A stretch of 64,000 nucleotides of DNA from Eledone cirrhosa. Its lineage: Eukaryota. The position numbers and the translations under genes are program-made. The notes beneath the pieces were generated by a model that was given only the letters and a program-made list of their open reading frames with translations, was not told the DNA's origin and did not search any database. Of the stretch, positions 251 to 61,951 are shown one piece after another. Numbering within the stretch: position 1 is the stretch's first letter; each line of letters opens with the position of its first letter. The stretch spans positions 48,484,001 through 48,548,000 of the forward strand of contig OZ024747.1 in NCBI GenBank assembly GCA_964016885.1, read 5' to 3'.

Positions 251-304
<54 letters not shown>
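251..304. repeat. (AAT)n microsatellite at 3' end of Tx1-like copy 1
   Basis: Pure AAT run directly abutting the element end (minus strand ...AATAAAGAAATC-ATTATT). Confidence 0.95.
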
Positions 305-306
<2 letters not shown>

Positions 307-565
307 TTTCTTTATTAACCACAAGGGTTTACATAAAGTAGACATTAAGGACAGTGCAGGACAATGCAGGACGGTACAAATGGGCATTTCTGCGTGTAAA
401 AAACAAAAACAGAGGATGTAACAAAAATAACAATGAAAATAACAATGAAAAATTCCCCAATAGGGGGGAGACCTCGGAGGGACATTTGTGGAGAAAGCCC
501 AGTAAAAAGCCACAATGACCCTGACCACCAAGGCAAGTGCCCTCTCCCAGTTTTCCACCTTTAAT

Positions 566-3500: not shown

Positions 3501-3985
3501 CACCCTCCACCCCTATCCGCTAATCCCACACAGTCCCAGCGTGCATCTAAGATCCCGTTCCAGTCGCCCACTAACACTAAAGAGCGGGACGTTCCAAGAA
3601 ACGTCTCCAGACGCCGGAAGAAATCAGGCCGCCCTGCTCCTGTCGGGGCATAGACGGCCACTAGCCTGAAAGCTTGCCCGTCTCCGCTGGTCACGTCCAG
3701 CACCACCAGCTTACCCTCTGGGTCCAGGAAGATGGCCCGTATGGCGAGATCCAAACCTCTCCGAAAAAGCACAGCAACTCCTCCACCGGATCCAGGACGG
3801 CTGGGAGATGCGTACACATCGTAGCCGCCGAAGATCGGTGCGAAGGCCCGTGCTTCGGAGATTCTGGTCTCGCTGATGGCCACTACATCTATGTTTAGTG
3901 ACCTGAGGTCGTTGAGCAGGTGACCCTGCTTCCATGACGACCCCAAGCCACGCGCATTTATGCTGCCTATTCTGAGTGAGGTCAT
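566..3985 (-). pseudogene. Tx1-like ORF2 (APE endonuclease + RT + C-terminal Cys motif) split by a TGA near 1289
   Basis: APE motifs SINARG, SETR, VYAP, GDWN, YLDR, TDH; RT motifs PGLDG, RPITLLN, LDQSKAFD, VRQGCPLS, YADD; GTCAACTGA here versus GTCAAGCGA in copy 2; frame continues in ORF 566..1219 (CPRC...HALVQC). Confidence 0.9.
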
Positions 3986-4020
3986 GTTTAAAATAGAGTG
4001 GAAAAGATGGGAAAGACCAC

Positions 4021-6120
4021 TTACCGTACTTTTGGTAGAGGAGGGATGGTTTTTACATCCCTTTTCACTTGATCGTCTGGTGAAGGGACCGTTGAATCGT
4101 CCCTTCGGCTGGTCGTCGGCTCTTCTAAGAGAATGTTTGAGTATACTCTTCGATTGATGGTTCCTCCTAGGTCCCTGAAATCACCAACTGCGTTGGGGAA
4201 TTTCGTTTTAATGTTTGTGTATTGTTTCTGTGCTATTTTTAGCAGTCTTATGTTAGTTGGCGTTTTGATTGGTGCTGGTATTATGTAGTCCTGTTGTGAA
4301 ATCTCTGTGTGTTCAATTATGTAAGTCATTAGTTTCTTGTTGTGTGTATTTATTGCCGTGCATTTGTTTTTCTGGGGGTGGGGTGTGGTTCTGCTATTTT
4401 CTTGTCGTTGTTGCTGGGTGTGTGTGTTTTGTTGTTGTGTTTGCGATGTTGGTGCTTGTGGTGGTGGTGTTGAAGGTGTTGTTGGCGGTGGGGTTGTCGC
4501 CGGTGGTGATGGTGGTGCTAGTGTGGGTGGTGATGGTGTTGGTGTTGTTGCTGCTGTGGGTCTCTTTGCAGTAGACTTTACCCTTTTCTCATTTCTTTCC
4601 TCCCTTTTCAAAGGCGACGATGCGCTGCTTCTGCGTTTGTGCCTTCTTACGACCTTTTGCCATCCCTCTTCCACCTCACACTCCATGTCTGATTCTGTGA
4701 GGTCGGGGAGGGGTACCAGCTCCACTCTTTCACTTGTTGTTGGTGATGTTTGCACTGGAGTCTCTGTTGCAGCTGCATTTGGTATTGCTGTTGTTGTTGT
4801 TAATATTTCCACTGCTGCTGCTGTTTTTGATTTCCGTGGAGTGGGTATGGGTGCCACGGGCCTATCGTTCCTGGTTGCCGCTTGTCCTGTTGCTGGTAGC
4901 CGTGGAGCCGGATTCGGAAGGAGGGGGGTTTTCTCCTTTCTCAGGGTCTTCTCGTTGCAGAAGGCCCTGAGGTGAGTCTTCGATCCACAGCGAAAGCATT
5001 TCGGGCGTTTGCCCTCAACACTTATGGGCAGTTGAGTGCCGTTATCGAAGTCTATCACATCCGGGATAGCTTCGATGCACTCCTGGTTGGTTTGGATTAG
5101 CATCTCAATGGAGGAGCCGACCCAATCTTCTCTTACTTTTTTCTGTACTTGCAGTACAGTTGTTTTGTCCTCGATTCCGACGAGGACAGACGCGGCCAGC
5201 CAAGAAGGGGTCATTCCGGGGGGGACGTGGGTCAGTTTGACCCTCACAATTTTTTGCCCGCAGTAGGAGGGCACTAACACCATTTCCTCGCTCCTTAGGG
5301 TCACTACTGATTGGGCCTTTGCCTCCTGGGGTGTGGCAAAAAGTACGTCTACGGTGGCATATTTTTTGCCTCGGGTGATGTGCGTTTTCCGCTGCCACAC
5401 AGACCCCAAGGCTTTTTGTATTTGGGCCTCTGTGCCTCTTTCCACCCTACGGGATTTTGTACTTACTGTACGGTACGTGACCGTACAGTGCTCTTGGGTT
5501 TCGAAAAATTTTTCCGCTGCCTTGCAGATTGCTCGGTGTCCATTCTTTGTCACCATCTTCTTCGCTTCCTCTAATTCCTCATTTGTTATGAGGATTGTTT
5601 CCAAGTTTTTCGCAATACCTGCAAATGAGATTGGTTTTTCTCTGCTGCTGCTGTTGTTGTTGTCGTCAGAGCTGCTGGTACTTTTGTTGTTGCTGCAGGT
5701 ACTACGACTACTGCCTCCGCCGCTGTTGCTGTGGTTGTTGTTGGTGTTGCTGCTGCTAATGCTGTTGTTGTTTATGCTGCTGGTGATGCTGTTGCGGCTG
5801 CTACTGTTGTTTTCATTGTCACTGTTGCTGTTGCTATTACGGCTGCTACTGCTATTATTCCTGACGTCAGACGAATGAACTGGGTTCTCGTATTTCCCGC
5901 ACACCTGTTTCGTCGCTGTCGTCGTCGTCGTGGAGAAACCTTGCACGCTTTGCACGAGACTTTTCTTTTCTTTCGTCACTTGCGAAAGAGAAGGGAGGGA
6001 GAGAGACACATTTAAAGAAGGGAGGGAGAGAGACAATCTTCTCTCTGCTGTAGTGATGATTGAGGAAGAAGAAGACGGAATGAGTGGGAGTGACGTATGA
6101 AATTTCTTTTTCGTAGCCAT
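4021..6120 (-). CDS. Tx1-like ORF1p (699 aa): N/S-rich N-terminus, probable RRM-like region, CCHC zinc knuckle, P/T-rich region
   Basis: Open 699-aa ORF upstream of ORF2; knuckle CFRCGSKTHLRAFC; basic motif WQKVVRRHKRR. Confidence 0.85.
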   Translation of the reverse strand: MATKKKFHTSLPLIPSSSSSIITTAERRLSLSLPSLNVSLSLPSLSQVTKEKKSLVQSVQGFSTTTTTATKQVCGKYENPVHSSDVRNNSSSSRNSNSNSDNENNSSSRNSITSSINNNSISSSNTNNNHSNSGGGSSRSTCSNNKSTSSSDDNNNSSSREKPISFAGIAKNLETILITNEELEEAKKMVTKNGHRAICKAAEKFFETQEHCTVTYRTVSTKSRRVERGTEAQIQKALGSVWQRKTHITRGKKYATVDVLFATPQEAKAQSVVTLRSEEMVLVPSYCGQKIVRVKLTHVPPGMTPSWLAASVLVGIEDKTTVLQVQKKVREDWVGSSIEMLIQTNQECIEAIPDVIDFDNGTQLPISVEGKRPKCFRCGSKTHLRAFCNEKTLRKEKTPLLPNPAPRLPATGQAATRNDRPVAPIPTPRKSKTAAAVEILTTTTAIPNAAATETPVQTSPTTSERVELVPLPDLTESDMECEVEEGWQKVVRRHKRRSSASSPLKREERNEKRVKSTAKRPTAATTPTPSPPTLAPPSPPATTPPPTTPSTPPPQAPTSQTQQQNTHTQQQRQENSRTTPHPQKNKCTAINTHNKKLMTYIIEHTEISQQDYIIPAPIKTPTNIRLLKIAQKQYTNIKTKFPNAVGDFRDLGGTINRRVYSNILLEEPTTSRRDDSTVPSPDDQVKRDVKTIPPLPKVR

Positions 6121-6355
6121 GTTGTTTTTTGTTTAAAATGAATATTGGGTACAAAACCCCAATAACTGGTTATTTAACCCCGAAGGGCCAAATAACGGAC
6201 AGAAAGACCCCTCTCACGAGGAGGAGGGTGTCTTTATCAACAATTTGGTTCAAGTTTTAAACAATTTACAATTGTTTTAACAGTTAAAAATTACTATACC
6301 TTACAGAGCCGAGCCTCCGTCAACCATGGCATTCAATAATAATAATAATAATAAT

Positions 6356-7706
6356 GACACTGAAGAAAGATACAATTATTTGGTGACACTGAAGAAGGAT
6401 TCAAGTATTTGGGTATTCTGAAGGCTGATGACATCAAGAACAAAAAAAATGAAGGAATTGATAAGATCTGAATACATTCGGAGAGTAAGGAGGGTATTAA
6501 AGTCACATCTGAACAGTAGGAATGCCATAAGTGCAGTAAATTCCCGAGCTGTGTCTATTATTAGGTACAGTGCGGGAATTCTGAGATGGAATGTTGCTGA
6601 ACAAAAAGAAATGGATAGGAAGACTAGGAAGCTATTGACTATCTACAACATGTTCCACAAGAGGAGTGATGTCGATAGACTCAACTTAAGGAGATCTGAA
6701 GGTGGAATAGGTCTTATCAGCATAGAGGACTGTGTTCAGATGGAGAAAAACAACCTACACAAATACGTGACCGATAGTAAGGAGCCAATGCTCAGAATTG
6801 TACTGAAGGAGAGGACAATAGACCAGGGGATGTCCAAGGAGGAAATAACAACGAGGAGAAAGAGCAACCTTCATGAAAAATCCCTTCTTAGTACCTTCTT
6901 TGAGAAAACGGAATTCAGAGATCCACAGACATGGAACTGGTTGAGAAGAGGAGACCTTAAAAAGGCTACAGAAGGAATGCTAATGGCTGCGCAAGAGCAG
7001 GCCCTCAAAACGAAATGGCTGAAACACCATATTTACAAGGAGGAGGCTAGCCCACTGTGCAGGATCTGTGGAGAGAGAGAGGAGACTGTGGCTCACATTG
7101 TATCCGAGTGTAAACACCTAGCCCAAACTCACTATGAAGGCTGAAGACATGATGTGATGGGCAGGGTGATCCACTGGCACCTATGCAAAGTAAACAATTT
7201 ACCACATTCTAAGAAGTGGTATGAGCATAAGCCAGAGTCGGTGATAGAAAACGATCAGCTGAAGGTGCTGTGGGATTTTAGGATACAGATGGATAAGAAA
7301 CTGGAACACAATAGACCTGACCTGGTGGTTTTGGACAAGGAAAAAAGATCGTGCCTGATTGTGGATGTGGCCTGCCCATTCGATACGAGAGTGCAAGAGA
7401 AGGAGAGGGAGAAAATTAACCGATACCAGGACTTAAAGTGGGAGGTAAAAAGGATTTGGAAATGCCATGAAGTCAAAGTGGTCCCGATTGTCATAGGTGC
7501 ATTAGGTACTATCTCAAAAGGTTTCCAAGGATGGTTAAAGAAAATTGGCCCCGCCCCGCTTTTTGGAACGCTTCAAAAGGCATGCTTGCTGGGAACAGCA
7601 AGAACCCTCCGATACGTTCTGAATATCTGAGGCTGCAGGTAGTGGCTTGATATTCATTTCAACAAACTTTCCATTTAAATAACATCAATGACTGAGACTC
7701 AAAGAA
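6356..7706 (+). mobile_element. 5'-truncated Dong/R4-type RLE non-LTR retrotransposon, copy 1
   Basis: ORFs 6428..7144 and 7154..7630: post-RT region, CCHC (CRICGEREETVAHIVSEC), RH-D motif, RLE core RPDLVV..D..KINRY; internal TGA at a W codon; (AAT)n both sides. Confidence 0.9.
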
Positions 7707-7748
7707 CAATAATAATAATAATAACAATAATGTATTTAATATAAAAAT

Positions 7749-9484: not shown

Positions 9485-9954
9485 TATAATCAATATTCTG
9501 CTAGAAGCTGTCAATTATTTATCAGAGTTGATTTCGTAGTGCTTGTTGATGAGAATCGATTTCTTCGTACTTAACTGCAACATAAGACTATAGTTTACCA
9601 TTGTCTACACTGTTCGGCTCTCACGTACACCGTCTTACATCTTGGATTCATAATGTATTGTCAGTTACACAGAATATATACTATCAAATCAAACCCTGTA
9701 TATATGTGAGCATGTCTCTGTGTGTGTATTCTGTGTGTGTCTGTGTGTCTGTGTGTCTGTGTGTCTGTGTGAAGGATAATTCGACACCATTGTAGAGATT
9801 AACGGTTTATTGAGGTTAAAGGCTGATCCAGTAACCTGTTACTCTGAAGTTTCTCTTGTGAACTACCCTCTGTGCTACAGTTTGACTAAGGAACCTGGAA
9901 CACACCAGGTAGACTTCCCAGTAATAGGATACTGAATAAACCTTAATAAAATGT

Positions 9955-16499: not shown

Positions 16500-17948
16500 G
16501 CTCAAAAATCTGAGGCACGAATTTAGCTCTCTTAAAACCAACCAAAAACTTGCACCTTCTGGCACACACATGGCAACTGTAGACTCGTCTGGGACTTTCC
16601 ACTGCTTGGTTCTGACTGTGTGTTCTCCTGAGTCTTTTAAGACCGCCCTTGCTTGCACATTCCTTGCCACATTCCTTTTCAGATCATGTTGTTCATAATC
16701 TACATGAGGTCTACTGATATGACTTTGTTCAGGTCTCATCAGACCACCTTTGCTCAGGCAGACTCGACCACAGTCCTGGCAAACCAAATGTTACTCAACA
16801 GCAGCCAGTTCAGAACACTCCTTTTTCCTCACCTTCCTTTTCAGTGTTAGGTGTTCTCTTCGACGAGTTTTAAAGTGTTCACTACCTGACTTGATCAAAC
16901 GTCTTCCCTTCACACACTCCTGAGCCATTTTCTCTCATTCGTCAGATGAAATTCCAGCTCAAGCCAAGGTACCCCTGACACAGTCTCGGTACCGTATTTT
17001 TGGTTTGTGTGGTGGTCACCTTCCTTCGCACAGTTCACTGTAGAGAAGTTGCTTTGGAATACGATCATCAGACATACGGACCACGTGACTTCACCATCTC
17101 AACCAATGCCAAAAGATCATGCTCTCTATACACATGCACCTGCTCCGTTCGGGAATTTCCAAATCACTGACGAACATTTTCCATCACACCCCAACTATCT
17201 TACGAAGAGATTGTTGGTGAAACCTCTCCAGTTCCTTGAGGTGCTTTCTGTATGTGACCCACGTTTCACGAGTATAAAGCAAAAAGGAAAGGACACAAGT
17301 CAGATACTCTTTTACCTTGGTTTCAATGGTGTTACCTCGTCTGGACCATAAGCGTTCATTCATTTGTCCAAAAGCATCACTGTCTTTAGTGATTCTTAAG
17401 GATATCTCATCATCAAGTGTGCATGAATTGTTCAACGTTCTACCAAGGTAAACAAACTTGTCAGCAACTTTTAGCCTCTTTCCGTAGACGTACACACTTG
17501 GTGTAGTGTATTCTTTCCCAGGTGCTGACTGGTACATCCCAACAGTCTTTTCCCAGCTTACGATGAGGCCCAAAGCGCTGCAAGCTTCAGAAAAAGAGTT
17601 CTTAATATGCTGCATGTTACTTTGTGAGTGTACAAATAGATCGCAGTCATCTGCATACAAAGAAATCTCGGATTATAGATGTTAATACCTTCGTGCTTGC
17701 ACCAAAGCGCCTGAAGTGCGATACCTGATGTAAACTCCATGCGAACAATTTTTTTTAATGCCATGAGAAACACTATCGTAAAATATAAGGAAAACTAAGT
17801 TGGAGCCGCAATGCCCCCCCCCCCCCCCCCGCTTCCTCTATTTTCAACTGATATTGGTTCAGAGATGCTACCACCAATAATGACCCACGCCTTCATATCA
17901 TCATGAAAAAGACGCAGAATTTTCACAAACTTTGGAGGGCAGCCAAGC
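16500..17948 (-). mobile_element. Decayed RTE-clade LINE, 3' half
   Basis: GCPPKFVKILRLFHDDM, YADD, FVYLG, LLYTRETW and C-terminal C2H2-like CQDCGRVCLSKGGL / CHVCARRC, spread over several frames. Confidence 0.85.
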
Positions 17949-18576
17949 TGCACGCACTCGTCCAGTGTCCGAGCATTGCTGACTTGTGGGTTTATGTCGA
18001 ACACCTGCTGTCACGTGTAGGACGGATCCAGCTATCAGCTGAGTCCATCGTGAGGATTGCCCCGCCCTCCTCCTTTAGCCGGGAAGGGCAGGCAGTTTTT
18101 ATCTGTCTGGTGGCCATGGCGAAAGAGATAGTATAGTGGACACGTTTGAAAGGGCTGAAGACGAGCACTTACCTCTTCGGTGATGCCCTGATTAACTTTT
18201 TCAAATTTCATTTGAAAAGGAAAATCAGGGTAGAGAGGGAAGTGCTCTCTTCCCAGCATTTTGTTGAAAGATGGGTGAGAGAAGCAAGTATGGCCCGAGT
18301 GAATGGGCCTACTCTGAGTATGTGTCTGTAAATTAAAGGTGGAAAACTGGGAGAGGGCACTTGCCCTGGTGGTCAGGGCCACTGTGGTCTTTTAATGGGC
18401 TTTCTCCACAAATGTCGCTCCGAAGTCTCCCCCCTATTGGGGAATTTTTCTTTGTTATTTTATTACATCCTCTGTTTTTTTTTTACACGCAGAAATGCCC
18501 ATTTGTACCGTCCTGTATTGTCCTGTACTGTCCTTAATGTCTACTTTATGTAAACCCTTGTGGTTAATAAAGAAAA

Positions 18577-18577
<1 letters not shown>
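17949..18577 (+). mobile_element. 5'-truncated Tx1-like copy 3 (ORF2 end + 3' UTR)
   Basis: High similarity to 26279-26923; ends AATAAAGAAAAC-(ATT)n. Confidence 0.92.
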
Positions 18578-18634
<57 letters not shown>

Positions 18635-18640
18635 GTTGTT

Positions 18641-20871
18641 ATTCCTTGAATCTCAGTCATTGATGTTGGTTAACTGGAAAGTCCGTTGGATTGAATATCA
18701 AGCCACTACCTGCAGCCTCAGATATTCAGGACGTATCGGAGGGTTCTTGCTGTTCCAAGCAAGCATGCCTTTTGAAGCGTTCCAAAAAGCGTGAAGGGGC
18801 CGATTTTCTTTAACCATCCCTGGAAACTTTTGGAGATAGTCCCCAGTGCGCCTATGACAATCGGGATCACTTTGACTTCATGGCAGTTCCAGATCCTTTT
18901 CACCTCCCACTTTAGGTCCTGGTATCGGTTAATTTTCTCCCTCGCCTTCTCTTGCACTCTCGTGTCGAACGGGCAGGCCACATCCACAATCAGACACGAT
19001 CTTTTTTCTTTGTCCACAACCACCAGGTCAGGTCTATTGTGTTCCAGTTTTTTGTCCGTCTGTATCCTAAAATCCCACAGCACCTTCACCTGATTGTTCT
19101 CCATCACCGCCTCTGGCCTATGCTCATACCATTTCTCAGAATGTGGTAAATTGTTTACTTTGCACAGGTGCCAGTGGATCACCCTGCCCATCACATCGTG
19201 TCTCCAGCCCTTATAGTGGGTCTGGGCTAGGTGTTTACACTCGGACACAATGTGAGCCACAGTCTCCTCTCTCTCTCCACAGATCCTGCACAGTGGGCTA
19301 GCCTCCTCCTTGTAGATATGGTGCTTCAACCACTTCGTTTTGAGGGCCTGCTCCTGCGCAGCCATTAGCATTTCTTCTGTAGCCTTTTTGAGGTCTCCTC
19401 TTCTCAACCAGTTCCATGTCTGTGGATCTCTAAATTCAGTTTTCTCAAAGAAGGTACTATGAAGGGATTTTCCCTTAAGGCTGCTCTTCCTCCTTGATGT
19501 TATTTCCTCCTTGGACATCCCCTGGCCTACTGTCCCCTCCTTCAGTACAGCTCTGAGCATTGGCTCCTTACTATAGGTCACGTATTTGTATAGGTTGTTT
19601 TTCTCCATCTGAACACAGTCCTCTATGCTGATAAGACCTCTTCCACCCTCAGATCTCCTTAGGTAGAGTCTATCAACATCACTCCTCTTGTGGAACATGT
19701 TGTAGATAGTCAATAGCTTCCTAGTCTTCCTATCCATTTCTTTTTGTTCAGCAACATTCCATCTCAGAATTCCCGCACTGTACCTAATAATAGACACAGC
19801 TCGGGAATTTACTGCGCTTATGGCATTTCTGCTGTTCAGATGTGACTTCAATACGCTCCTTACTCTCCGAATGTATTCAGTTCTTAACAATTCCTTCATT
19901 TTTTTGTTCTTTATGCCATCAGCCTCCAGAACGCCCAAATACTTGTATTCTTCCTCAGAGTCAATTTCCTTTATCATCTCACCTGTTGGTATCTGGATCC
20001 CGTTACTTCTGCTCAACCTACCCCTCTTCATCACAATGACTCCACATTTACCAATACCAAACTGCATACATATATCACTGCTGAAAATACGGACAGTGTC
20101 AACAAGCACATCCAACTCCTTCTCACTTTTCCCGAAGAGCTTAAGATCGTCCATGAAGAGGAGGTGACTGATGGTAAGCTCTCCCCTTCCCAACTTGTAT
20201 CCTGCTCTCACTTTTCGCAGCATAATGGTCAAGGGCATCAGGGCAAGGACAAACAACAGAGGGGACAGGCTATCTCCCTGGAAGATACCTCTCTTGATCT
20301 TCACGCTTCCCAAGGATACTCCAGTTGATGTCAACTCTGTCTCCCAGGACCCCATACTCCTGCCTAGCAACTGTCTGATGTTATCTGCCACCTTGAAGAT
20401 CTCCAGGCTTTTGGTGATCCAGGAATGGGGCACCATGTCAAATGCCTTTCTGTAGTCTATCCATCCCATGGCAAGATCAGTGTGTCTCCTCCTGCAATTC
20501 CCCATTACCATCTTATCAATAAGTAACTGGTCCTTTGTACCACGTGACTTCTTTCGGCATCCTTTCTGTTCGTCCGGTAACAAGTTGTTTGTGTGGAGGT
20601 GATGGTAGATTTCCTCAGACACAATGCTCGTCAACAGTTTCCACATTACGGACAGACATGTGATAGGTCTATAGTTGGTAACATCATTACCCTTGATTCG
20701 GTCTTTCATTATCAGAACTGTGGTACCTTTTGTCAACCACTCTGGCACCTCACCCGACACCAAGCAGTCATTGAACATGGCCGTCAGCTTCGGGTGGAGG
20801 GATGTTAAATGTTTAATCCAATACCCCTGCACACCATCTGGGCCTGGTGATTTCCAGTTGGTTAGTTGGTT
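18641..20871 (-). mobile_element. 5'-truncated Dong/R4-type element, copy 2, with uninterrupted RT-CCHC-RLE
   Basis: KSPGPDG, YRPITCL, IDYRKAFD, GIFQGDSLSP, LFMDD, YKYLG, CRICG..H...C, RHD, RPDLVV; (ATT)n both sides. Confidence 0.93.
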
Positions 20872-20898
20872 ATTATTATTATTATTATTGAATGCCAT
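18718..20898 (-). CDS. Chimeric 726-aa RT-RLE ORF; ATG comes from the antisense strand of the Tx1 5' end and reads through (AAT)n
   Basis: MAF-NNNNNNN-QLTNWKSPGPDG..., no stop until YVLNI. Expression unknown. Confidence 0.5.
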   Translation of the reverse strand: MAFNNNNNNNQLTNWKSPGPDGVQGYWIKHLTSLHPKLTAMFNDCLVSGEVPEWLTKGTTVLIMKDRIKGNDVTNYRPITCLSVMWKLLTSIVSEEIYHHLHTNNLLPDEQKGCRKKSRGTKDQLLIDKMVMGNCRRRHTDLAMGWIDYRKAFDMVPHSWITKSLEIFKVADNIRQLLGRSMGSWETELTSTGVSLGSVKIKRGIFQGDSLSPLLFVLALMPLTIMLRKVRAGYKLGRGELTISHLLFMDDLKLFGKSEKELDVLVDTVRIFSSDICMQFGIGKCGVIVMKRGRLSRSNGIQIPTGEMIKEIDSEEEYKYLGVLEADGIKNKKMKELLRTEYIRRVRSVLKSHLNSRNAISAVNSRAVSIIRYSAGILRWNVAEQKEMDRKTRKLLTIYNMFHKRSDVDRLYLRRSEGGRGLISIEDCVQMEKNNLYKYVTYSKEPMLRAVLKEGTVGQGMSKEEITSRRKSSLKGKSLHSTFFEKTEFRDPQTWNWLRRGDLKKATEEMLMAAQEQALKTKWLKHHIYKEEASPLCRICGEREETVAHIVSECKHLAQTHYKGWRHDVMGRVIHWHLCKVNNLPHSEKWYEHRPEAVMENNQVKVLWDFRIQTDKKLEHNRPDLVVVDKEKRSCLIVDVACPFDTRVQEKAREKINRYQDLKWEVKRIWNCHEVKVIPIVIGALGTISKSFQGWLKKIGPFTLFGTLQKACLLGTARTLRYVLNI

Positions 20899-21104
20899 GG
20901 TTGACGGAGGCTCGGCTCTGTAAGGTATAGTAATTTTTAACCGTTAAAACAATTGTAAATTGTTTAAAACTTGAACCAAATTGTTGATAAAGACACCCTC
21001 CTCCTCGTGAGAGGGGTCTTTCTGTCCGTTATTTGGCCCTTCGGGGTTAAATAACCAGTTATTGGGGTTTTGTACCCAAAATTTCATTTTAAACAAAAAA
21101 CAAC

Positions 21105-23206
21105 ATGGCTACGAAAAAGAAATTTCATACGTCACTCCCACTCATTCCGTCTTCTTCTTCCTCAATCATCACTACAGCAGAGAGAAGATTGTCTCTCTCC
21201 CTCCCTTCTTTAAATGTGTCTCTCTCCCTCCCTTCTCTTTCGCAAGTGACGAAAGAAAAGAAAAGTCTCGTGCAAAGCGTGCAAGGTTTCTCCACGACGA
21301 CGACGACAGCGACGAAACAGGTGTGCGGGAAATACGAAAACCCAGTTCATTCGTCTGACGTCAGGAATAATAGCAGTAGCAGCCGTAATAACAACAGCAA
21401 CAGTGACAATGAAAACAACAGTAGCAGCCGCAACAGCATCACCAGCAGCATAAACAACAACAGCATTAGCAGCAGCAACACCAACAACAACCACAGCAAC
21501 AGCGGCGGAGGCAGTAGTCGTAGTACCTGCAGCAACAACAAAAGTACCAGCAGCTCTGACGACAACAACAACAGCAGCAGCAGAGAAAAACCAATCTCAT
21601 TTGCAGGTATTGCGAAAAACTTGGAAACAATCCTCATAACAAATGAGGAATTAGAGGAAGCGAAGAAGATGGTGACAAAGAATGGACACCGAGCAATCTG
21701 CAAGGCAGCGAAAAATTTTTTCGAAACCCAAGAGCACTGTACGGTCACGTACCGTACAGTAAGTACAAAATCCCGTAGGGTGGAAAGAGCCACAGAGGCC
21801 CAAATACAAAAAGCCTTGGGGTCTGTGTGGCAGAGGAAAACGCACATCACCCGAGGCAAAAAATACGCCACCGTAGACGTACTTTTTGCCACACCCAGGA
21901 GGCAAAGGCCCAATCAGTAGTGACCCTAAGGAGCGAGGAAATGGTGTTGGTGCCCTCCTACTGCGGGCAAAAAATTGTGAGGGTCAAACTGACCCACGTC
22001 CCCCCCGGAATGACCTCTTCTTGGCTGGCCGCGTCTGTCCTCGTCGGAATCGAGGACAAAACAACTGTACTGCAAGTACAGAAAAAAGTAAGAGAAGATT
22101 GGGTCGGCTCCTCCATTGAGATGCTAATCCAAACCAACCAGGAGTGCATCGAAGCTATCCCGGATGTGATAGACTTCGATAACGGCACTCAACTGCCCAT
22201 AAGTGTTGAGGGCAAACGCCCGAAATGCTTTCGCTGTGGATCGAAGACTCACCTCAGGGCCTTCTGCAACGAGAAGACCCTGAGAAAGGAGAAAACCCCC
22301 CTCCTTCCGAATCCGGCTCCACGGCTACCAGCAACAGGACAAGCGGCAACCAGGAACGATAGGTCCGTGGCACCCATACCCACTCCACGGAAATCAAAGA
22401 CAGCAGCAGCAGTGGAAATATTAACAACAACAACAGCAATACCAAATGCAGCTGCAACAGAGACTCCAGTGCAAACATCACCAACAACAACAAGTGAAAG
22501 AGTGGAGCTGGTACCCCTCCCCGACCTTACAGAATCAGACATGGAGTGTGAGGTGGGAGAGGGATGGCAAAAGGTCGCAAGAAGGCACAAACGCAGAAGC
22601 AGCGCATCGTCGCCTTTGAAAAGGGAGGAAAGAAATGAGAAAAGGGTAAAGTCTACTGCAAAGAGACCCACAGCAGCAACAACACCAACACCATCACCAC
22701 CCACACTAGCGCCACCATCACCACCGGCGACAACCCCACCGCCAACAACACCTTCAACACCACCACCACAAGCACCAACATCGCAAACACAACAACAAAA
22801 CACACACACCCAGCAACAACGACAAGAAAATAGCAGAACCACACCCCACCCCCAGAAAAACAAATGCACGGCAATAAATACACACAACAAGAAACTAATG
22901 ACTTACATAATTGAACACACAGACATTTCACAACAGGACTACATAATACCAGCACCAATCAAAACGCCAACTAACATAAGACTGCTAAAAATAGCACAGA
23001 AACAATACACAAATATCAAAACGAAATTCCCCAACGCAGTTGGTGATTTCAGGGACCTAGGAGGAACCATCAATCGAAGAGTATACTCAGACATTCTCTT
23101 AGAAGAGCCGACGACCAGCCGAAGGGACGATTCAACGGTCCCTTCACCAGACGATCAAGTGAAAAGGGATGTAAAAACCATCCCCCCTCTACCAAAAGTA
23201 CGGTAA
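21105..23206 (+). pseudogene. Tx1-like ORF1 with 1-nt frameshift near 21895
   Basis: ACACCCAGG here versus ACACCCCAGG in copy 1; split into ORFs 21105..21920 and 21827..23206. Confidence 0.85.
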
Positions 23207-23241
23207 GTGGTCTTTCCCATCTTTTCCACTCTATTTTAAAC

Positions 23242-26200
23242 ATGACCTCACTCAGAATAGGCAGCATAAATGCGCGTGGCTTGGGGTCGTCATGGAAGCA
23301 GGGTCACCTGCTCAACGACCTCAGGTCACTAAACATAGATGTAGTGGCCATCAGCGAGACCAGAATCTCCGAAGCACGGGCCTTCGCACCGATCTTCGGC
23401 GGCTTTGATGTGTACGCATCTCCCAGCCGTCCTGGATCCGGTGGAGGAGTTGCTGTGCTTTTTCGGAGAGGTTTGGATCTCGCCATACGGGCCATCTTCC
23501 TGGACCCAGAGGGTAAGCTGTTGGTGCTGGACGTGACCAGCGGAGACGGGCAAGCTTTCAGGCTAGTGGCCGTCTATGCCCCGACAGGAGCAGGGCGGCC
23601 TGATTTCTACCGGCGTCTGGAGACCTTTCTTGGAACGTCCTGCTCTTTAGTGTTAGTGGGCGACTGGAACGGGATCTTAGATGCACGCTGGGACTGTGTG
23701 GGATTAGCGGATAGGGGTGGAGGGTGCAAGAGCCTCACCAACCTGCTCAGGCGTTTTGAACTGTCTGACAGGTACCGATTGGATTTCCCGAATGTGCCAA
23801 TGTGGACTTGGACAAACCGCATAGGGTCATCCAGATCATATCTAGATAGAGTATTTTGTAGGGAAATAGATAGGTCTAGCATAGGCTGTCCACAATTCAA
23901 GATAGTCAGCTACACGGACCACAAATTCGTGATCTTTGTGCTTGACTTAGATAGGCTTCATAGACGAGGACCCGGCTACTGGAAGCTAAACGCGTCCTTA
24001 CCAGCGCGCAAGGCCTACAGAGACCGGATTAGCGAACTAGTTAAGCGGGCGTTGACGGGGGCCATCGTCAACAACAAGTGGTGGTTTGCTCTGAAAAGAG
24101 CGATTAGAATAGAATCGATTAGGTTTAGTAAGGCTTTAGCAATAGAGAAAAATAGAGCAGAGGGAGAACTAGTTAGAAAATTAGACGAGGCGCTTAGCAA
24201 AGGCATTGCGACCGACGTGCTTGCGGCGAAATTGGCCCTTGACCAATTCTTCAATGCAAAGCACGAAGGCTGCGTTGTCAGAGCAAGGGTGCGTGCTCTC
24301 AGACACGAGGGGACGAAAGCCGTGCAATGGGCCCGAGTGGCGGAGGCGCGTCGTGGCAACAAAGCCACGATCCGGTCTTTGGTGGACCACGACGGGCGCA
24401 TGCTACTCGATCCCGGGCAAATGTGTGGAGCTTTTCAGCGACACTTCGCTCAGCTGTTCGGGGGCAGCGGGGGGCCGGGTAGAGGGATGGACTTTAGTGT
24501 CTACCTCGACGGACTGCCGCGGCTCTCGGCCACTGAGGCGAAGTGTTGCGAAAAGCCGATAACAGCCGCTGAAGTAAGGGAGGCAATGACTGGCTGCACA
24601 AGGGGTAAATCGCCTGGTTTGGATGGTCTGCCCTATGAACTTTACGTACAGATGCCAGACTTGTTCGGAGGCCTCTTGGCGGACGTCTACTGCAACTGGC
24701 AACAGAACGGGAGAATTCCCAGTTCTGTGAGCCGAGGAGCGGTGGCACTGCTGAGAAAGGATCCGAACAAGGGGGATAACATAGAAAATTTCCGGCCCAT
24801 AACTCTGCTAAACACAGAGTTTAAGATTTTGGCCAAGGTGCTAGCAAAGAGGTTGGCGCTTGTCGTTGGTGGTCTGGTGGGAGAGGCGCAGACATGCGCC
24901 ATTCCCGACAGATCCATCCACGACAACCTCCACCTCATGCGATACATCGTAGAGAGGGTAGCTAGGGAACCTGGCACGGGTGGGTCCTTGATCAATTTAG
25001 ATCAGTCGAAAGCTTTCGATAGGGTCGACCATCGTTACCTAGCGGCAGTCCTGAGGGCGGCTGGCTTTGGGCCCGTCTTCAGAGGCTGGATCGCTGCCAT
25101 GCACAGCGACATCTGCTCTGTGGTGAGAGTGAACGGTCACCTGTCGGAACCGTTCAACATCATGCGCTCGGTCCGCCAAGGATGTCCCCTCTCGTCCCTC
25201 TTGTACGTATTGACGCTCGAGCCATTACTGCACAAACTGGAGACGTTGAGGGGAGTCCCGCGCGAACTAGGATGCGGAAGATCCGTGTCAGCATATGCGG
25301 ACGATGTCACCGTAGTGGTGTCGAACGCCAAACACATCGAGGCGATCGGCACTACACTAAGAGAATACGAAGCGGTGACAGGAGCAATGATCAACCAGGA
25401 AAAGTCAGTGGGCCTGCAGCTCGGCACCTGGAGAGGCAGGTCCATGCCGTCCAACAGCGTCGTCGGGCGCTGGACGGACGGACCGGTTAAATTGCTAGGG
25501 GTCTGGTTCGGTCCGGACCTCCAGACGGACAAAAACTGGGACGAGGTGACGAGCAGGGTGGCTTCTCTCACCCAGAAATGGGCGGAGAGGAAGCTATCCC
25601 TGAAAGGTCGAGCGGAGGTGGCTAACGCGTACATCGCGTCTGTCATCTGCTACCGCCTAACCGTCGTACCTTGTCCTAAGCCTCGCCTGACTGCGCTGGA
25701 GCGTTTGCTCTTTCGCTTTTTGTGGAAGGGACGTGCTCCGATGGTCAGGCGGTCCATCTGTTGTCAACACCCGCTACGTGGAGGGCTGGGCATGCCGTGG
25801 CTGATGATGCGCAGGCACGCGCTCAGGCTACGACATCTCCACCTCTTCCTCGACGGTGATCAGGTGTGGTCGCCGTTTGCTAGACGCGTTTTTCCCCAGC
25901 TCGTTTCCTTGACGGAGCTGCAGTCCTGGGTCAAGCGAAGACCGAGAGGGAGCGCCTGGAGACTGGAATGTCTTCAGGCGCTCACAGCCCTCGACCAATC
26001 GGGCAATGTGATCGGTGGAAACTCCACCTCGGCGTTCTATAGAGGATTAGTGGAGGGGAAGAGCGACGACGTACTTGGGGAAACTCTAGGCGTCGACGAA
26101 AATCAACTAGCCAATCTCTTCGGAAGAACTTTCGGGCCAGGGCCTATGGACAACTTCCAGAAATCTCTGGCCTGGCAGTGCTACCGAGGAGCCTTGCCAG

Positions 26201-26661
26201 TTCGGGATAAACTCTACAGGCATGGAGGTGCCGTCAGCCGGGCATGTCCGAGATGCGCGCAGGGCGACGAAACCGTCCTGCACGCACTCGTCCAGTGTCC
26301 GAAAATTGCTGACTTGTGGGTTTATGTCGAACACCTGCTGTCGCGTTTAGGACGGATCCAGCTATCATCTGAGTCTATCGTGAGGATTGCCCCGCCCTCC
26401 TCCTTTAGCCGGGAAGGGCAGGCAGTTTTTATCTGTCTGGTGGCCATGGCGAAAGAGATAGTATGGTGGACACGTTTGAAAGGGCTGAAGACGAGCACTT
26501 ACCTCTTCGGTGATGCTCTGATTGACTTTTTCAAATTTCATTTGAAAAGGAAAATCAGAGTAGAGAGGGAAGTGCTCTCTTCCCAGCATTTTGTTGAAAG
26601 ATGGGTGAGAGAAGCAAGAATGGCCCGAGTGAATGGGCCGACTCTGAGTATATATCTGTAA
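23242..26661 (+). CDS. Intact Tx1-like ORF2p (1139 aa): APE endonuclease, reverse transcriptase, Cys/His motif
   Basis: All APE and RT motifs in one frame, YADD catalytic motif, CPRCAQGDETVLHALVQC. Confidence 0.95.
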   Translation: MTSLRIGSINARGLGSSWKQGHLLNDLRSLNIDVVAISETRISEARAFAPIFGGFDVYASPSRPGSGGGVAVLFRRGLDLAIRAIFLDPEGKLLVLDVTSGDGQAFRLVAVYAPTGAGRPDFYRRLETFLGTSCSLVLVGDWNGILDARWDCVGLADRGGGCKSLTNLLRRFELSDRYRLDFPNVPMWTWTNRIGSSRSYLDRVFCREIDRSSIGCPQFKIVSYTDHKFVIFVLDLDRLHRRGPGYWKLNASLPARKAYRDRISELVKRALTGAIVNNKWWFALKRAIRIESIRFSKALAIEKNRAEGELVRKLDEALSKGIATDVLAAKLALDQFFNAKHEGCVVRARVRALRHEGTKAVQWARVAEARRGNKATIRSLVDHDGRMLLDPGQMCGAFQRHFAQLFGGSGGPGRGMDFSVYLDGLPRLSATEAKCCEKPITAAEVREAMTGCTRGKSPGLDGLPYELYVQMPDLFGGLLADVYCNWQQNGRIPSSVSRGAVALLRKDPNKGDNIENFRPITLLNTEFKILAKVLAKRLALVVGGLVGEAQTCAIPDRSIHDNLHLMRYIVERVAREPGTGGSLINLDQSKAFDRVDHRYLAAVLRAAGFGPVFRGWIAAMHSDICSVVRVNGHLSEPFNIMRSVRQGCPLSSLLYVLTLEPLLHKLETLRGVPRELGCGRSVSAYADDVTVVVSNAKHIEAIGTTLREYEAVTGAMINQEKSVGLQLGTWRGRSMPSNSVVGRWTDGPVKLLGVWFGPDLQTDKNWDEVTSRVASLTQKWAERKLSLKGRAEVANAYIASVICYRLTVVPCPKPRLTALERLLFRFLWKGRAPMVRRSICCQHPLRGGLGMPWLMMRRHALRLRHLHLFLDGDQVWSPFARRVFPQLVSLTELQSWVKRRPRGSAWRLECLQALTALDQSGNVIGGNSTSAFYRGLVEGKSDDVLGETLGVDENQLANLFGRTFGPGPMDNFQKSLAWQCYRGALPVRDKLYRHGGAVSRACPRCAQGDETVLHALVQCPKIADLWVYVEHLLSRLGRIQLSSESIVRIAPPSSFSREGQAVFICLVAMAKEIVWWTRLKGLKTSTYLFGDALIDFFKFHLKRKIRVEREVLSSQHFVERWVREARMARVNGPTLSIYL

Positions 26662-26921
26662 ACTAAAGGTGGAAAACTGGGAGAGGGCACTTGCCTTGGT
26701 GGTCAGGGTCATTGTGGCTTTTTACTGGGCTTTCTCCACAAATGTCCCTCCGAAGTCTCCCCCCTATTGGGGAATTTTTCATTGTTATTTTCATTGTTAT
26801 TTTTGTTACATCCTCTGTTTTTGTTTTTTTACACGCAGAAATGCCCATTTGTACCGTCCTGCATTGTCCTGCACTGTCCTTAATGTCTACTTTATGTAAA
26901 CCCTTGTGGTTAATAAAGAAA

Positions 26922-26986
<65 letters not shown>

Positions 26987-28224
26987 GTTCTTTGAGTCTC
27001 AGTCATTGATGTTATTTAAATGGAAACTTTGTTTAAATCAATATCAAGCCGCTACCTGCAGCCTCAGCTATTCAGGACGTATAGGAGGGTTCTTGCTGTT
27101 CCCAGCAACCATGCCTTTTGAAGAGTTCCAAAAAGCGGGGCTGGACTAATCTTCTTTAACCATCCTCGGAAACTCTTTGAGATAGTACCTAGTGCGCCTC
27201 TGTCAATCAGGACGACCTTGATCTCATGACAGTTCCAAATCCTTTTTTAATCCCACTTTAAATCCTTGTATCGATTAATTTTCTCCTTTTTTCCTTGCAC
27301 TCTCGTTTCAAATGGGAAGGCTACATCTACAATCAGACACGATCTTTTTTCCTTGTCCAAAACCACCAGGTCAGGCCTATTGTGTTCTAATTTCTTGTCC
27401 GTCTGTATCCTAAAATCCCACAGCACTTTCACCTGATCGTTTTCTATCACTGATTTTGGCTTATGCTCATACCATTTCTCAGAATGTGGTAAATTGTTTA
27501 GTTTGCATAGATACCAGTGGATCACCCTGCCCATCACATCATGTCTCTAGCCTTTATAGTGAGTCTGGGCTAGGTGTTTACACTCGGATACAATGTGAGC
27601 CACAGTCTCCTCTCTCTCTCCACTGATCCCACACAGTGAGCTAGCCTCCTCCTTGTCAATATGGTGTTTCACCCAATTCGTTTTGAGGGCCTGCTCTTGC
27701 GCAGCCATTAGCATTCCTTCTGTAGCTTTTTTAAGGTCTCCTATTTTTAACCAGTTCTATATCTGTGGATCTCTGAATTCCGTTTTCTTAAAGAAGGTAC
27801 TATGAAGGGATTTTTCATGAAGGCTGCTCTTCCTCCTTATTGTTATTTCCTCCTTGGACATCTCCTGGTCTATTGTCTTCTCCTTCAGTACAATTTTGAG
27901 CATTGGCTCCTTACTGGCAGACACATATTTGTGCAGGTTGTTTTTCTCCATCTGAACACAGTCCTCTATGCTGATAAGACCTCTTCCACCCTCAGATCTC
28001 CTTAAGTAGAGTCTATCAACTTCACTCCTCTTGTGGAACATGTTGTAGATAGTCAATAGCTTACTAGTCTTCCTATCCATTTCTTTTTGTTCAGCAACAT
28101 TCCATCTCAGAATTCCTGCACTGTACCTAATAATAGACACAGCTCGGGAATTCACTGCACTTATGACATTCCTAATATTTAGATGTGATTTTAGTATGTT
28201 CCTTACTCTCCTTATGTATTCAGT
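26987..28224 (-). mobile_element. Older 5'-truncated Dong/R4-type copy 3
   Basis: ORFs 27247..27537 and 27757..28155 homologous to other copies with stops and frameshifts; same 3' UTR; tail-to-tail with Tx1 copy 2 across (ATT)n at 26924-26986. Confidence 0.9.
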
Positions 28225-28227
28225 GTA

Positions 28228-28415
28228 TTGGCAGTATCGGTAGAGGGTCGGGCGCCATGCTTTTCAGCATAGTTATTTACCTTTGCGATCTGAGGTCGAA
28301 TCCTGCCGAGGTTGACTTTGACTTTCATCCTTGCGGGGTCGATAAAATAAAGTACCAGTAATGTACTGGGTAATTGCTGGCCTTGTGCCGCCAAAAGTAG
28401 AAACAATTATTATTA
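28228..28415 (+). mobile_element. tRNA-derived SINE (family also at 33255, 34880, 40684, 56277, 61400)
   Basis: A-box TGGCAGTATCGGTAG, B-box-like GGTCGAATCC, central CTTTCATCC..CGGGGTCGATAAAATAAAGTACCAG, short ATT tail. Confidence 0.8.
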
Positions 28416-36359: not shown

Positions 36360-36390
<31 letters not shown>

Positions 36391-36514
36391 GTATGTGTGT
36401 ATATATGTGTCGTCTGCCTAATAAAACAGCGATATCATTTCAGTTATATAGTATTTTTGTATATTAGATTAGATATTGTCTTCCTGTTTCTTATACAACA
36501 ACTACAACGGTACG

Positions 36515-37104: not shown

Positions 37105-37210
37105 TCTTCTTCTTCTTCTTCTTCTTCTTCTTCTTCTTCTTCTTCTTCTTCTTCTTCTTCTTCTTCTTCTTCTTCTTCTTCTTCTTCTTCTTCTTCTTCT
37201 TCTTCTTCTT
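37105..37210. repeat. (TTC)n tract, about 35 units, forming the 3' tail of Dong copy 4
   Basis: Continuous with the element end GAGACTCAAAGAA on the minus strand. Confidence 0.92.
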
Positions 37211-40200
37211 TGAGTCTCAGTCATTGATGTTAGTTAACTGGAAAGTTTGTTGAAGTGAATATCAAGCCAATACCTGCAGCCTCAGATATTCAGGACGTAT
37301 CGGAGGGTTCTTGCTGTTCCCAGCAAGCATGCCTTTTGAAGCGTTCCAAAAAGCGTGAAGGGGCCAATTTTCTTTAGCCATCCCTGGAAACCTTTTGAGA
37401 TAGTACCTAGTGCGCCTATGACAATCGGGACCACTTTGACTTCATGGCAGTTCCAAATCCTTTTTACCTCCCACTTTAAGTCCTGGTATCGGTTAATTTT
37501 CTCCCTCTCCTTCTCTTGCACTCTCGTATCGAATGGGTAGGCCACATCCACAATCAGGCACGATCTTTTTTCCTTGTCCAAAACCACCAGGTCAGGTCTA
37601 TTGTGTTCCAGTTTCTTGTCCGTCTGTATCCTAAAATCCCATAGCACCTTCACCTGATCGTTTTCTATCACCGACTCTAGCTTATGCTCATACCACTTCT
37701 CAGAATGTGGTAAATTGTTTACTTTGCATAGGTGCCAGTGGATCACCCTGCCCATCACATCATGTCTCCAGCCTTCATAGTGAGTTTGGGCTAGGTGTTT
37801 ACACTCGGATACAATGTGAGCCACAGTCTCCTCTCTCTCTCCACAGATCCTGTACAGTGGGCTCCTTGTAAATATGGTGTTTCAACCACTTCGTTTTGAG
37901 GGCCTGCTCTTGCGCAGCCATTAACATTCCTTCTGTAGCCTTTTTAAGGTCTCCTCTTTTCAACCAGTTCCATGTCTGTGGATCTCTGAATTCAGTTTTC
38001 TCAAAGAAGGTACTATGAAGGGATTTTTCCTGAAGGCTGCTCTTTCTCCTTGTTGATATTTCCTCCTTGGACATCCCCTGGTCTATTGTCCTCTCCTTCA
38101 GTACAATTCTGAGCATTGGCTCCTTACTATCAGTCACGTATTTGTGTAGGTTGTTTTTCTCCATCTGAACACAGTCCTCTATGCTGATAAGACCTCTTCC
38201 ACCTTCAGATCTCCTTAAGTAGAGTCTATCGACATCACTCCTCTTGTGGAACACGTTGTAGATAGTCAATAGCTTCCTAGTCTTCCTATCCATTTCTTTT
38301 TGTTCAGCAACATTCCATCTCAGAATTCCCGCACTGTACCTAATAATAGACACAGCTCGGGAATTTACTGCACTTATGGCATTCCTACTGTTCAGATGTG
38401 ACTTTAATACGCTCCTTACTCTCCGAATGTATTCAGTTCTTATCAATTCCTTCATTTTTTTGTTCTTGATGTCATCAGCCTCCAGAACACCCAAATACTT
38501 GTATCCTTCTTCAGTGTCAATTTCCTTTATCATCTCACCTGTTGGTACCTGGATTCCGTTACTTCTGCTCAATTTACCCCTCTTCATCACAAGGACTCCA
38601 CACTTACTAATACCAAATTGCATACATATATCATTGCTGAAAATACGGACAGTGTCAACAAGCACATCCAACTCCTTCTCACTCTTCCCGAAGAGCTTAA
38701 GATCGTCCATGAAGAGGAGGTGATTGATGGTAAGCTCTCCCTTTCCCAACTTGTATCCTGCTCTCACCTTTCGCAGTATAATGGTCAGGGGTATCAGGGC
38801 AAGGACAAACAACAGAGGGGACAGACTATCTCCCTGGAAGATACCTCTCTTGATCTTCACGCCTCCCAAGGATTCTCCAGCTGATGTTAACTTTGTTTCC
38901 CAGGACTTCATACTTTTGCCCAACAACTGTCTGATGTTATCTGCCACCTTGAAGATCTCTAGGCTTTTGGTGATCCAAGAATGAGGCACCATGTCAAATG
39001 CCTTTCTGTAGTCTATCCATCCCATGGCAAGACCAGTGTGTCTCCTCTTGCAATTCCTCATTACCATCTTATCAATAAGTAACTGGTCCTTTGTACCACG
39101 GGACTTCTTTCGGCATCTTTTCTGTTCGTCCGGTAACAAGTTGTTTGTGTGGAGGTGATGGTAGATTTCCTCAGACATAATGCTTGTCAACAGTTTCCAC
39201 ATTACGGACAGACATGTGATAGGTCTATAGTTGGTAACATCATTACCCTTGATACGGTCTTTCATTATCAGAACTGTGGTACCTTTTGTCAACCACTCTG
39301 GTACCTCACCTGACATCAAGCAGTCATTGAACATGGTTGTCAGTTTCGGGTGGAGGGATGTTATATTTTTAATCCAATACCCCTGCACACCATCTGGGCC
39401 TGGTGATTTCCAGTTGGTTAGTTTTTTGGCCTTACCTTAAGAGTTTTAACTGTGATACTCAAATCAGTTTGTTGGTGTGCCTGTTCACTAATCTCCTTCT
39501 GTACTGTCTCAATTCACACTGCCTGGTCATTATGTTTAACATCCTGCTCCCATATTCCTCTACAGAGTGTTTTAGTTTGTTCCGCCTCAGGGATCAAGTC
39601 GTTGCCTCTTTCTTTCCCTTCAAGCTGTCCAAACAGCATCTTCTGGTTGTTGTCAAACATGCGGTTCTGTCTATACTGACTGACTCTGCTCTCGTATCGC
39701 CTAATTTTTGCACTCTTTGCTACAATGCGTTGCTTCAGTTCCTCTATGATAATATTTAACTTTTTCCTCCTAGTTTTGTACTTTATTTCCAGTCTATTTT
39801 TAGTGTCTATGTTTTTTAGTGTCCCATTCAGTAGGGATTCAAGCTTTCCAATGTCATTTCTCATTTCCCTGATTTGACCACTCAGTCGTTTCTTCCACCA
39901 AGGCTCTGATCTTTCTTGTTTGTTGTTTCCTCTCGTTTGTATACCTAGTAATTTCCTCACTGTATTTGCTGTTACTTTGAGGATATTGTTATACTGGTGA
40001 AGGCTCCTCGCCTCAAGGTATGGGATGACTTTGTTTACCTTAGCTGTTGTTTTTTTTAACTTTTTCCTGTCTACAAATCTTAGGTTCATAGGTTTCCCAC
40101 TATCATTGTTCAATTCATCATCCACTAAGTTTAGGATATCAACCAAATCTTGACCTAGCCCGTCAGCATTTATTTCCTCAATGGCCGTATCTCTGTTCCA

Positions 40201-40596
40201 GGTATTATTTATTTCAGCATTCAGATCATTGTGTGCTTCGGATGGTTCCTCCGTTCTCTCAACCTCTTCACCTTCATTTCCCACTGGCTCGTTTGCCTGG
40301 CTGGCATACTCCACTCTCCATTCCCAAGCTAATCTCTCTGCTCAGTTCCTCCAGTTCCAGCTCGCTTATCCACCCATTAGTTCTTATTACCCGAGCCTGC
40401 CCGGCCAAATTTTGTTCATCTAATTTAAATAGACCAATCTCGTTCCAGATGTTATGCATCCGTCTCCTATAGCCTTTCTCCTTGGGGTTACTCTTCAGGT
40501 AACATTTCATGACAGTTCTATCCAATTCTTTCGTCCAGTTGGTTCTGGTCCCTTTCCTTCTTCTTCTTCCTCCGACACCAGCAGTATTTGGTTGAC

Positions 40597-40598
<2 letters not shown>
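37211..40598 (-). mobile_element. Longest Dong/R4-type element, copy 4 (N-terminal domain, RT, CCHC, RLE; two frameshifts and one stop)
   Basis: N-terminal WTKELDRTVMKCYLKSNPKEKGYRRRMHNIW, PWWKKRL, RQNRMFDNNQK, then RT and RLE as in other copies; (AAT)n at 40599-40683. Confidence 0.92.

Positions 40599-40683
<85 letters not shown>

Positions 40684-40684
<1 letters not shown>

Positions 40685-43092: not shown

Positions 43093-43168
<76 letters not shown>

Positions 43169-43578: not shown

Positions 43579-43643
<65 letters not shown>

Positions 43644-43888: not shown

Positions 43889-43926
<38 letters not shown>

Positions 43927-44070: not shown

Positions 44071-44108
<38 letters not shown>

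Positions 44109-44285: not shown

Positions 44286-44317
<32 letters not shown>

Positions 44318-45618: not shown

Positions 45619-45649
<31 letters not shown>

Positions 45650-61902: not shown

Positions 61903-61949
<47 letters not shown>

Positions 61950-61951
<2 letters not shown>

Follow-up and report, generated by a model that had tools for sequence, protein, structure and literature searches.

In a 64,000-nucleotide stretch of the Eledone cirrhosa genome (GCA_964016885.1, contig OZ024747.1, positions 48,484,001 to 48,548,000 of the forward strand; the window hereafter), long interspersed nuclear elements (LINEs) of two unrelated kinds are stacked on (AAT)n microsatellites: Tx1-like elements, which carry an apurinic/apyrimidinic endonuclease (APE), and Dong-like elements, which carry motifs of a restriction-like endonuclease (RLE). 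This target sharing is real and genome-wide, whereas the alternating two-partner logic that the original prediction for this DNA had seen in it is unsupported. We conclude, with a probability of about 0.82, that the arrays are pile-ups of several LINE families in (AAT)n tracts, each kind with a fixed polarity, likely built by repeated insertion blind to the partner. The finding adds (ATT)n as a target for Tx1-like elements, with more than 11,000 ends of each kind in the genome.

Two kinds of element on one microsatellite

We counted element ends as exact patterns over the whole assembly (3.0 Gb), an approach that misses mutated ends and tracts of over about 70 bases. A perfect 14-bp ATT tract (TTATTATTATTATT) directly precedes 1608 of the 1687 5' ends (heads) of the family Tx1A (95%), well over the 20% of flanks of one type that Kojima takes as target preference (PMC4494074). 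The 3' ends (tails) number 11,479 for Tx1A and Tx1B and 11,125 for DongA, the reversed-pattern controls giving 39 and 67. Across the tract, a Tx1 tail faces a DongA tail in antisense at 1293 junctions; a DongA tail leads into a Tx1A head in the same sense at one, and there the tract switches from AAT to ATT. The junctions are dispersed, occurring on at least C1-C7 and C28. Thus each kind has a fixed polarity: Tx1-like APE elements and a short interspersed nuclear element (SINE) read ATT, and Dong-like RLE elements read AAT. The opposite polarity of the two families on one microsatellite had been predicted from the window, as had a tract at the Tx1 5' junction and a non-random orientation of neighbours, and all three hold across the genome.

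Individual copies agree with these counts. AAT-type repeats follow the Dong 3' end in 30 of 30 fetched copies, of which 8 ran off the locus, 2 had internal deletions and 20 showed a visible truncation junction; AAT lies upstream of 17 of these 20 true 5' truncations and, as truncation points are randomly placed, Dong appears to land inside existing tracts. Among truncated Tx1 copies of an unselected series, 6 of 17 have an upstream tract, against a background of about 0.03% of positions per polarity lying within 10 bp of a tract (58 tracts of at least four AAT units in 1 Mb of random DNA from C1-C4). Outside the window, 33 of 40 full-length Tx1A copies have an element of one of the sharing families, here called the guild, right upstream of their tract.

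The two kinds differ in architecture. The second open reading frame (ORF2) of the Tx1-like elements has an N-terminal APE, a reverse transcriptase (RT) and a C-terminal zinc motif (PF03372, PF00078, PF13966), and its closest solved structure is L1 ORF2p (E 2.6e-52). ORF1 has a CCHC-type motif visible in the sequence, no Pfam match at cut-off, and Atlas look-alikes in zf-CCHC and ZCCHC3-type RNA-binding clusters (scores 0.88-0.93); a separate ORF1 with an RNA-binding domain and a CCHC knuckle is a feature of the Tx1 clade. In Dong the RT is followed by a CCHC knuckle and PD..D..K (PD-(D/E)xK) motifs, both read by eye, and the structure is closer to R2 than to L1; DongB has a single ORF of 1216 aa with an RT by Pfam and no APE match. 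We assign the labels Tx1 and Dong/R4 by architecture and target, because homologue searches gave no named references for a tree.

DongB shares the target too, as do a third Dong-like family (locus L080), Tx1 families with other 5' ends and the SINE, which ends in ATT, so that three or more Dong-like families make up the guild together with several Tx1-like families and one SINE. The SINE tail is weakly like two Tx1 tails (p=0.008, 0.05) and unlike those of Tx1A (p=0.45) and DongA (p=0.98), with DongB at p=0.09. Within the Tx1-like families, Tx1B (L064:7035+, L210, L211, L219) has an ORF2 about 95% like that of Tx1A and a different 5' untranslated region and ORF1, switching near Tx1A nt 2271, which marks it as an apparent 5' module exchange. 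Three other Tx1 copies (L057, L091, L234) have inverted 5' parts, as in twin priming.

Two clusters in the window bring the families into contact. Cluster 1 runs (AAT)18, Tx1(-), (AAT)7, Dong(+), (AAT)5; cluster 2 runs Tx1-type fragment(+), (ATT)19, Dong(-), (TTA)6+TT, full-length Tx1(+), (ATT)21, Dong(-). Every piece lies where it was first placed, and all four Tx1/Dong junctions are indeed microsatellite (4/4) and antisense (4/4). The elements and tracts of the window are as follows.

251..304, no strand: (AAT)18 tract, 3' flank of Tx1A copy 1
305..6334, minus: Tx1A copy 1, full-length Tx1-like LINE; ORF1 open (703 aa stop to stop, 4021-6132), ORF2 broken by a stop near 1288
6335..6355, no strand: (AAT)7 tract, head-to-head junction of Tx1A and truncated Dong
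6356..7707, plus: DongA (Dong/R4-like), 5'-truncated; 29-bp duplication of Dong sequence at the 5' junction (6355)
7708..7722, no strand: (AAT)5, 3' flank of Dong 6356..7707
17948..18577, plus: second Tx1 subfamily, 3' fragment (93% to Tx1A); 5' end without tract
18578..18634, no strand: (ATT)19, tail-to-tail junction
18635..20869, minus: DongA, 5'-truncated; its open frame (about 716 aa) bears RT, CCHC knuckle and RLE motifs
20870..20889, no strand: (TTA)6+TT, head-to-head junction; its ATT units (20872-20889) number exactly six, the floor described below
20890..26923, plus: Tx1A copy 2, full-length; ORF2 open (1139 aa, APE-RT-zinc finger), ORF1 frameshifted (21093-21920, 21779-23206)
26924..26986, no strand: (ATT)21, tail-to-tail junction
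26987..28224, minus: DongA, 5'-truncated, decayed (88-91% to other copies); 5' end adjoins the SINE without tract
28225..28407, plus: SINE-like repeat ending in (ATT)n, Tx1 polarity; end of the array
37200..40598, minus: fourth DongA copy; (AAG)35 at the 3' end, (AAT)28 at the 5' end; no Tx1 neighbour
61948..64000, minus: diverged Tx1-like copy (80% to Tx1A); ends at the (AAT)15 tract 61903-61947

Cluster 2 lacks a tract at both of its outer ends, 17948 joining unique DNA and 28224 joining the SINE. The Dong pieces of the clusters are 92.4% alike and differ in truncation point, and the window's Tx1A copies differ by 0.99%, close to the family median of 0.96% (609 pairs of full-length copies); the clusters are therefore independent insertions, as had been proposed. 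One compound unit copied twice in the window is ruled out, the Tx1A pair being as diverged as random pairs.

We suggest that insertion proceeds by target-primed reverse transcription within an existing tract, which the new copy divides in two so that target remains on either flank. The genome has few long tracts (about 20-24 per Mb), some three quarters of which touch a guild LINE: among 100 random 10-kb stretches from C1-C4 (1 Mb), which contain 24 tracts of at least 18 bp, 18 of the 24 touch a Tx1- or Dong-like LINE (95% interval 53-90%). A new copy would therefore usually adjoin an older one; contact between Tx1 and Dong would then be antisense by geometry, and contact within a kind would be tandem. 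The fourth DongA copy ends in (AAG)35 instead of AAT, so tails can be target DNA, and insertion likely splits the tract. In the window the young Tx1A copies, about 1% apart, were probably the last to arrive, in the 5' tract of an older Dong, the window's Dong copies being 4-12% apart. That about three quarters of long AAT tracts are LINE ends bears on the origin of microsatellites and on their use as markers.

Several observations count against this reading. Of the truncated Tx1 copies, 11 of 17 lack an upstream tract, so either Tx1 targeting is looser than that of Dong or many of the copies were shortened only afterwards. Two loci are exceptions: at L235 a truncated Tx1 stands in the same sense behind a Dong tail, and at L224 a SINE and a Tx1 tail face each other. 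The proposed order of insertion is drawn from divergence only, and no empty site was found. A joint skipping 17830-28223 came up as a candidate and was not accepted, its short side being 21-22 letters beside a poly-C run. Among short contigs of four sequencing runs, none bridged the window junctions.

The six-unit floor and the choice of target

At full-length Tx1 heads the upstream tract has a sharp lower limit of six ATT units, here called the floor. No junction between a Tx1 tail and a Tx1A head has fewer than six ATT units among the first 100 matches listed, and only 3 of 76 Tx1B junctions do (spacers of up to 27 nt), against 9 of 37 Dong heads (spacers under 18 nt; p=0.002). Unit counts at Tx1 heads step from near zero to a plateau at six, with no spike. 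A motif, RGWYV, recurs 10 nt after the tract in 84 of 84 Tx1A records (from overlapping loci), 5 of 6 of Tx1E and 1 of 1 of Tx1F, and in 6 of 11 DongB and 2 of 6 DongA heads (3 more at 9 nt); for a pattern noticed after the fact, the chance is about 0.004 that 3 of 5 lineages would share it at any one of 20 positions. This places it at +28 from the A six units upstream, and +28 is the spacing of the downstream promoter element (DPE). DPE-like motifs at +29 to +36 are described for Drosophila LINEs (PMC1636488). In the window, Tx1A copy 2 has DPE-like GGTTG at 20899-20903, and its RNA is predicted to start at 20872, inside the (TTA)6+TT tract.

The simplest reading of the floor is a leader, with the RNA beginning within the tract; between it and an 18-bp recognition footprint, the sequence leaves the balance near even. 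That the Tx1 protein simply needs about 18 bp of tract upstream, with no RNA leader, we regard as a serious possibility at somewhat below even odds. A footprint would give the observed step to a plateau without a spike. Also in its favour, any tract at a truncated copy is mostly six or more units long, Tx1B shows the floor although it lacks the DPE-like motif, and SART1 is reported to need 12 bp of upstream repeat (PMC7265360). Against it stand the presence of the tract at 22 of 23 full-length Tx1 copies against 6 of 17 truncated ones (p=5e-5) and the motif spacing in Tx1A, Tx1E, Tx1F and DongB.

The leader alternative would make the microsatellite both the landing site and half of the promoter. 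The DPE-like motif would set the start six units upstream inside the tract; full-length Tx1 RNA would carry (AUU)6, copy this leader into the new site and so add target; Tx1 and Dong would make most long AAT tracts; and Dong may use a related 5' module in place of Bombyx Dong's ribozyme. We put this fuller model forward tentatively and hold it possible rather than probable. If true, it would be a case of a LINE borrowing its transcription start from its target and renewing that target. Weighing against it, RGWYV is absent at that spot from Tx1B (0/22), Tx1B2 (0/1) and Tx1C (0/3), and Tx1B nevertheless shows the floor. In Dong the motif is present and the floor absent.

The heads of the two kinds have further points in common. 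Dong and Tx1 heads (L098 DongA, L099 DongB, L125:4019+ and others) share a layout of about 210-225 nt to an A-rich ATGG, with a GTAAG-type motif at +27 to +46 in most, plus hairpins. DongA and Tx1E heads have 15 identical letters in common. Of 14 pairs, 7 have a shuffle p of 0.003-0.03 (uncorrected). The 5' junctions of full-length Dong copies vary (for example C2:378811977), the first few letters of the head being repeated at some of them, in contrast to Tx1A, whose junctions are uniform.

Long target-site duplication is ruled out as a source of the floor at L070, L074, L076, L086 and L213, where 1-4 ATT units and then other sequence lie downstream, pure or nearly pure ATT lies upstream, and the downstream sequence is not repeated. 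The prediction that each insertion regenerates target for the other element thus loses this route, and could stand through tract left on both sides or a copied leader.

The same prediction attributed the shared target to an APE and an RLE that had converged on opposite strands. Such convergence is a candidate; the same polarity would result if an (AUU)n or (AAU)n RNA end annealed to the target. In a rival mechanism, which we think rather unlikely, Tx1 would locate its tract by base-pairing between an (AUU)n RNA end and the AAT strand; its APE would be of loose specificity, and the polarity would require no enzyme convergence. The 11 truncated Tx1 copies that lack an upstream tract mostly have a downstream one, and insertions also occur in (ACT)n and at (CTT)n/(ATT)n borders (L228, L239), as pairing might allow; however, copies with a single ATT downstream (L086, L213) leave little to pair and bear no RNA-made tail, and related Tx1-clade families are considered to be targeted mainly by the endonuclease (PMC4494074). 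Both ORFs are open in 12 of 36 Tx1A copies examined; the family is young and has intact copies, which makes two unrelated enzymes available on a single substrate for asking whether enzyme or RNA aims such microsatellite-specific LINEs.

Neighbours within the arrays

The original prediction went further and saw a two-element system with alternating arrays, Tx1 and Dong each landing by preference next to the other. Both window clusters alternate, as do arrays at L085, L100 and L238, and the 1293 Tx1-Dong junctions could be read in the same way, but Dong is no commoner beside Tx1A than beside any tract. On the upstream side it occurs at 11 of 35 full-length Tx1A copies and 7 of 24 random tracts (p=1), on the downstream side at 10 of 35 and 5 of 24 (p=0.56). 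For Tx1 tails the upstream figures are 16 of 35 Tx1A copies and 5 of 24 random tracts (p=0.06). These comparisons leave out 5 duplicated loci of 40 upstream flanks (L010, L015, L021, L093, L094), 2 of 37 downstream flanks (L093, L094) and the window's own copies. Tandems within a kind are frequent: 456 of 1687 Tx1A heads (27%) follow a Tx1A/B tail, Dong-Dong tandems occur at L056 and L125, and 53 junctions join a DongB tail to a Dong head with spacers of up to 33 nt. Of DongA tails genome-wide, a smaller share, 11.6%, face a Tx1 tail. By hand count of 40 unselected Tx1 copies in genome order, the 3' neighbour is Dong in 12 and Tx1 in 9, and among the 23 full-length copies of that series the 5' neighbour is Dong in 7 and Tx1 in 7. 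With further families also taking part in the arrays, a two-element system is very improbable. There is no clear partner preference, and the order of elements does not strictly alternate.

If neighbours were independent, 1380-3489 junctions between Tx1 and DongA would be expected with tracts of at least six units and 944-1948 with at least five, so the 1293 seen fall within or just below the range. Two points temper this: with tracts of at least four units the expectation is 569-968, below the number seen, and the baseline comprises the 24 tracts sampled in 1 Mb across four chromosomes. A modest preference of Tx1 and Dong for each other may therefore exist.

It is highly improbable that false joins of the assembly at AAT tracts created the arrays, or that these are copies of a single compound unit: although the junctions are simple repeats and some arrays are duplicates, the window copies have diverged as far as random pairs have, each site shows its own Dong truncation point, and mis-joins would not be expected to produce a six-unit floor specific to Tx1 heads or family-specific polarity at thousands of sites. 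Unequal crossing-over likely lengthens some arrays. Near-identical repeats of element plus junction at L092-L094 are 0.03-0.08% apart, others occur at L014/L015, and seven copies with a common interrupted junction lie at C1:441.10-441.13 Mb (C1:441098472-441134902), pointing to some tandems as probable recombination products, an amplification on top of retrotransposition.

Known systems and other features of the window

Dong is reported to target the TAA microsatellite, including the snail family DongBg (PMC3812793), and the primer of Bombyx Dong has TAA repeats upstream on the sense strand (PMC3774820). The Dong-like families here are like Dong of the R4 clade (Bombyx Dong, DongAg, DongBg) in having a TAA target in the same polarity and an RT followed by CCHC and RLE motifs, and unlike it in that at least three families occupy the target, the head layout resembles the Tx1 type and, in contrast to Bombyx Dong, no hepatitis delta virus (HDV)-like ribozyme was found. 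At the 5' end of Dong no such ribozyme matched Rfam in five loci and none was found by a loose descriptor, both of which can miss divergent folds. An HDV-like 5' ribozyme is not known to define the Dong/R4 clade. In Octopus vulgaris, Dong-R4 and L1-Tx1 both figure among the elements given as recently active (PMC13282606).

Microsatellite insertion by Tx1-clade APE elements is described for Kibi in (TC)n, Koshi in (TTC)n and crocodilian families in (TTCC)n/(TTTC)n (PMC4494074). We found no (ATT)n-targeting Tx1 and no mixed guild in literature listings; Repbase, Kojima and Fujiwara 2004 and the target lists of PMC4494074 could hold one. Unlike that of Kibi and Koshi, the target here is (ATT)n, is common to an RLE clade and comes with a six-unit floor at full-length heads.

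TRAS and SART are both APE elements of the R1 clade, and R1 and R2 are an APE and an RLE element that came in parallel to one target, 28S rDNA. In the silkworm, TRAS and SART are reported to occupy telomeric (TTAGG)n on opposite strands and in opposite directions (PMC7265360). The present families are likewise two on opposite strands of one repeat; unlike TRAS/SART, the repeat is dispersed (AAT)n rather than telomeric and one partner is an RLE element, so the system works like that pair without being a member of it. Keno (APE) and Utopia (RLE) are described as having arrived in parallel at U2 snRNA genes (PMC4640811). Theirs is the same strand (identical 3' flanks) of a host gene, whereas here opposite strands are used and target survives on both sides. 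The Eledone cirrhosa arrays thus join opposite-strand sharing and APE-RLE convergence at a dispersed target. R2 RNAs are reported to keep 9-36 nt of upstream 28S, a target-derived leader that gives uniform 5' junctions (PMC3774820). Tx1A heads have similarly uniform junctions; unlike in R2, where a ribozyme sets the RNA end, a promoter with its start in the target would do so here.

The window holds further repeats. The fourth DongA copy (37105-40830 with its flanks) lies between (AAG)35 on its 3' side and (AAT)28 plus a SINE on its 5' side, and was likely inserted at the border of a compound microsatellite. Just upstream of cluster 2, at 17184-17672 (minus), is a fragment of another reverse transcriptase, presumably RTE-like. 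A 39-bp minisatellite of 27 copies, open on both strands, occupies 8431-9489, and a decayed transposase frame, which we take to be mariner-like, lies at 35713-36417 (plus). Very long degenerate trinucleotide fields, (CAA)n of about 1.5 kb and (TGG)n of about 1.9 kb, span 42784-47219.

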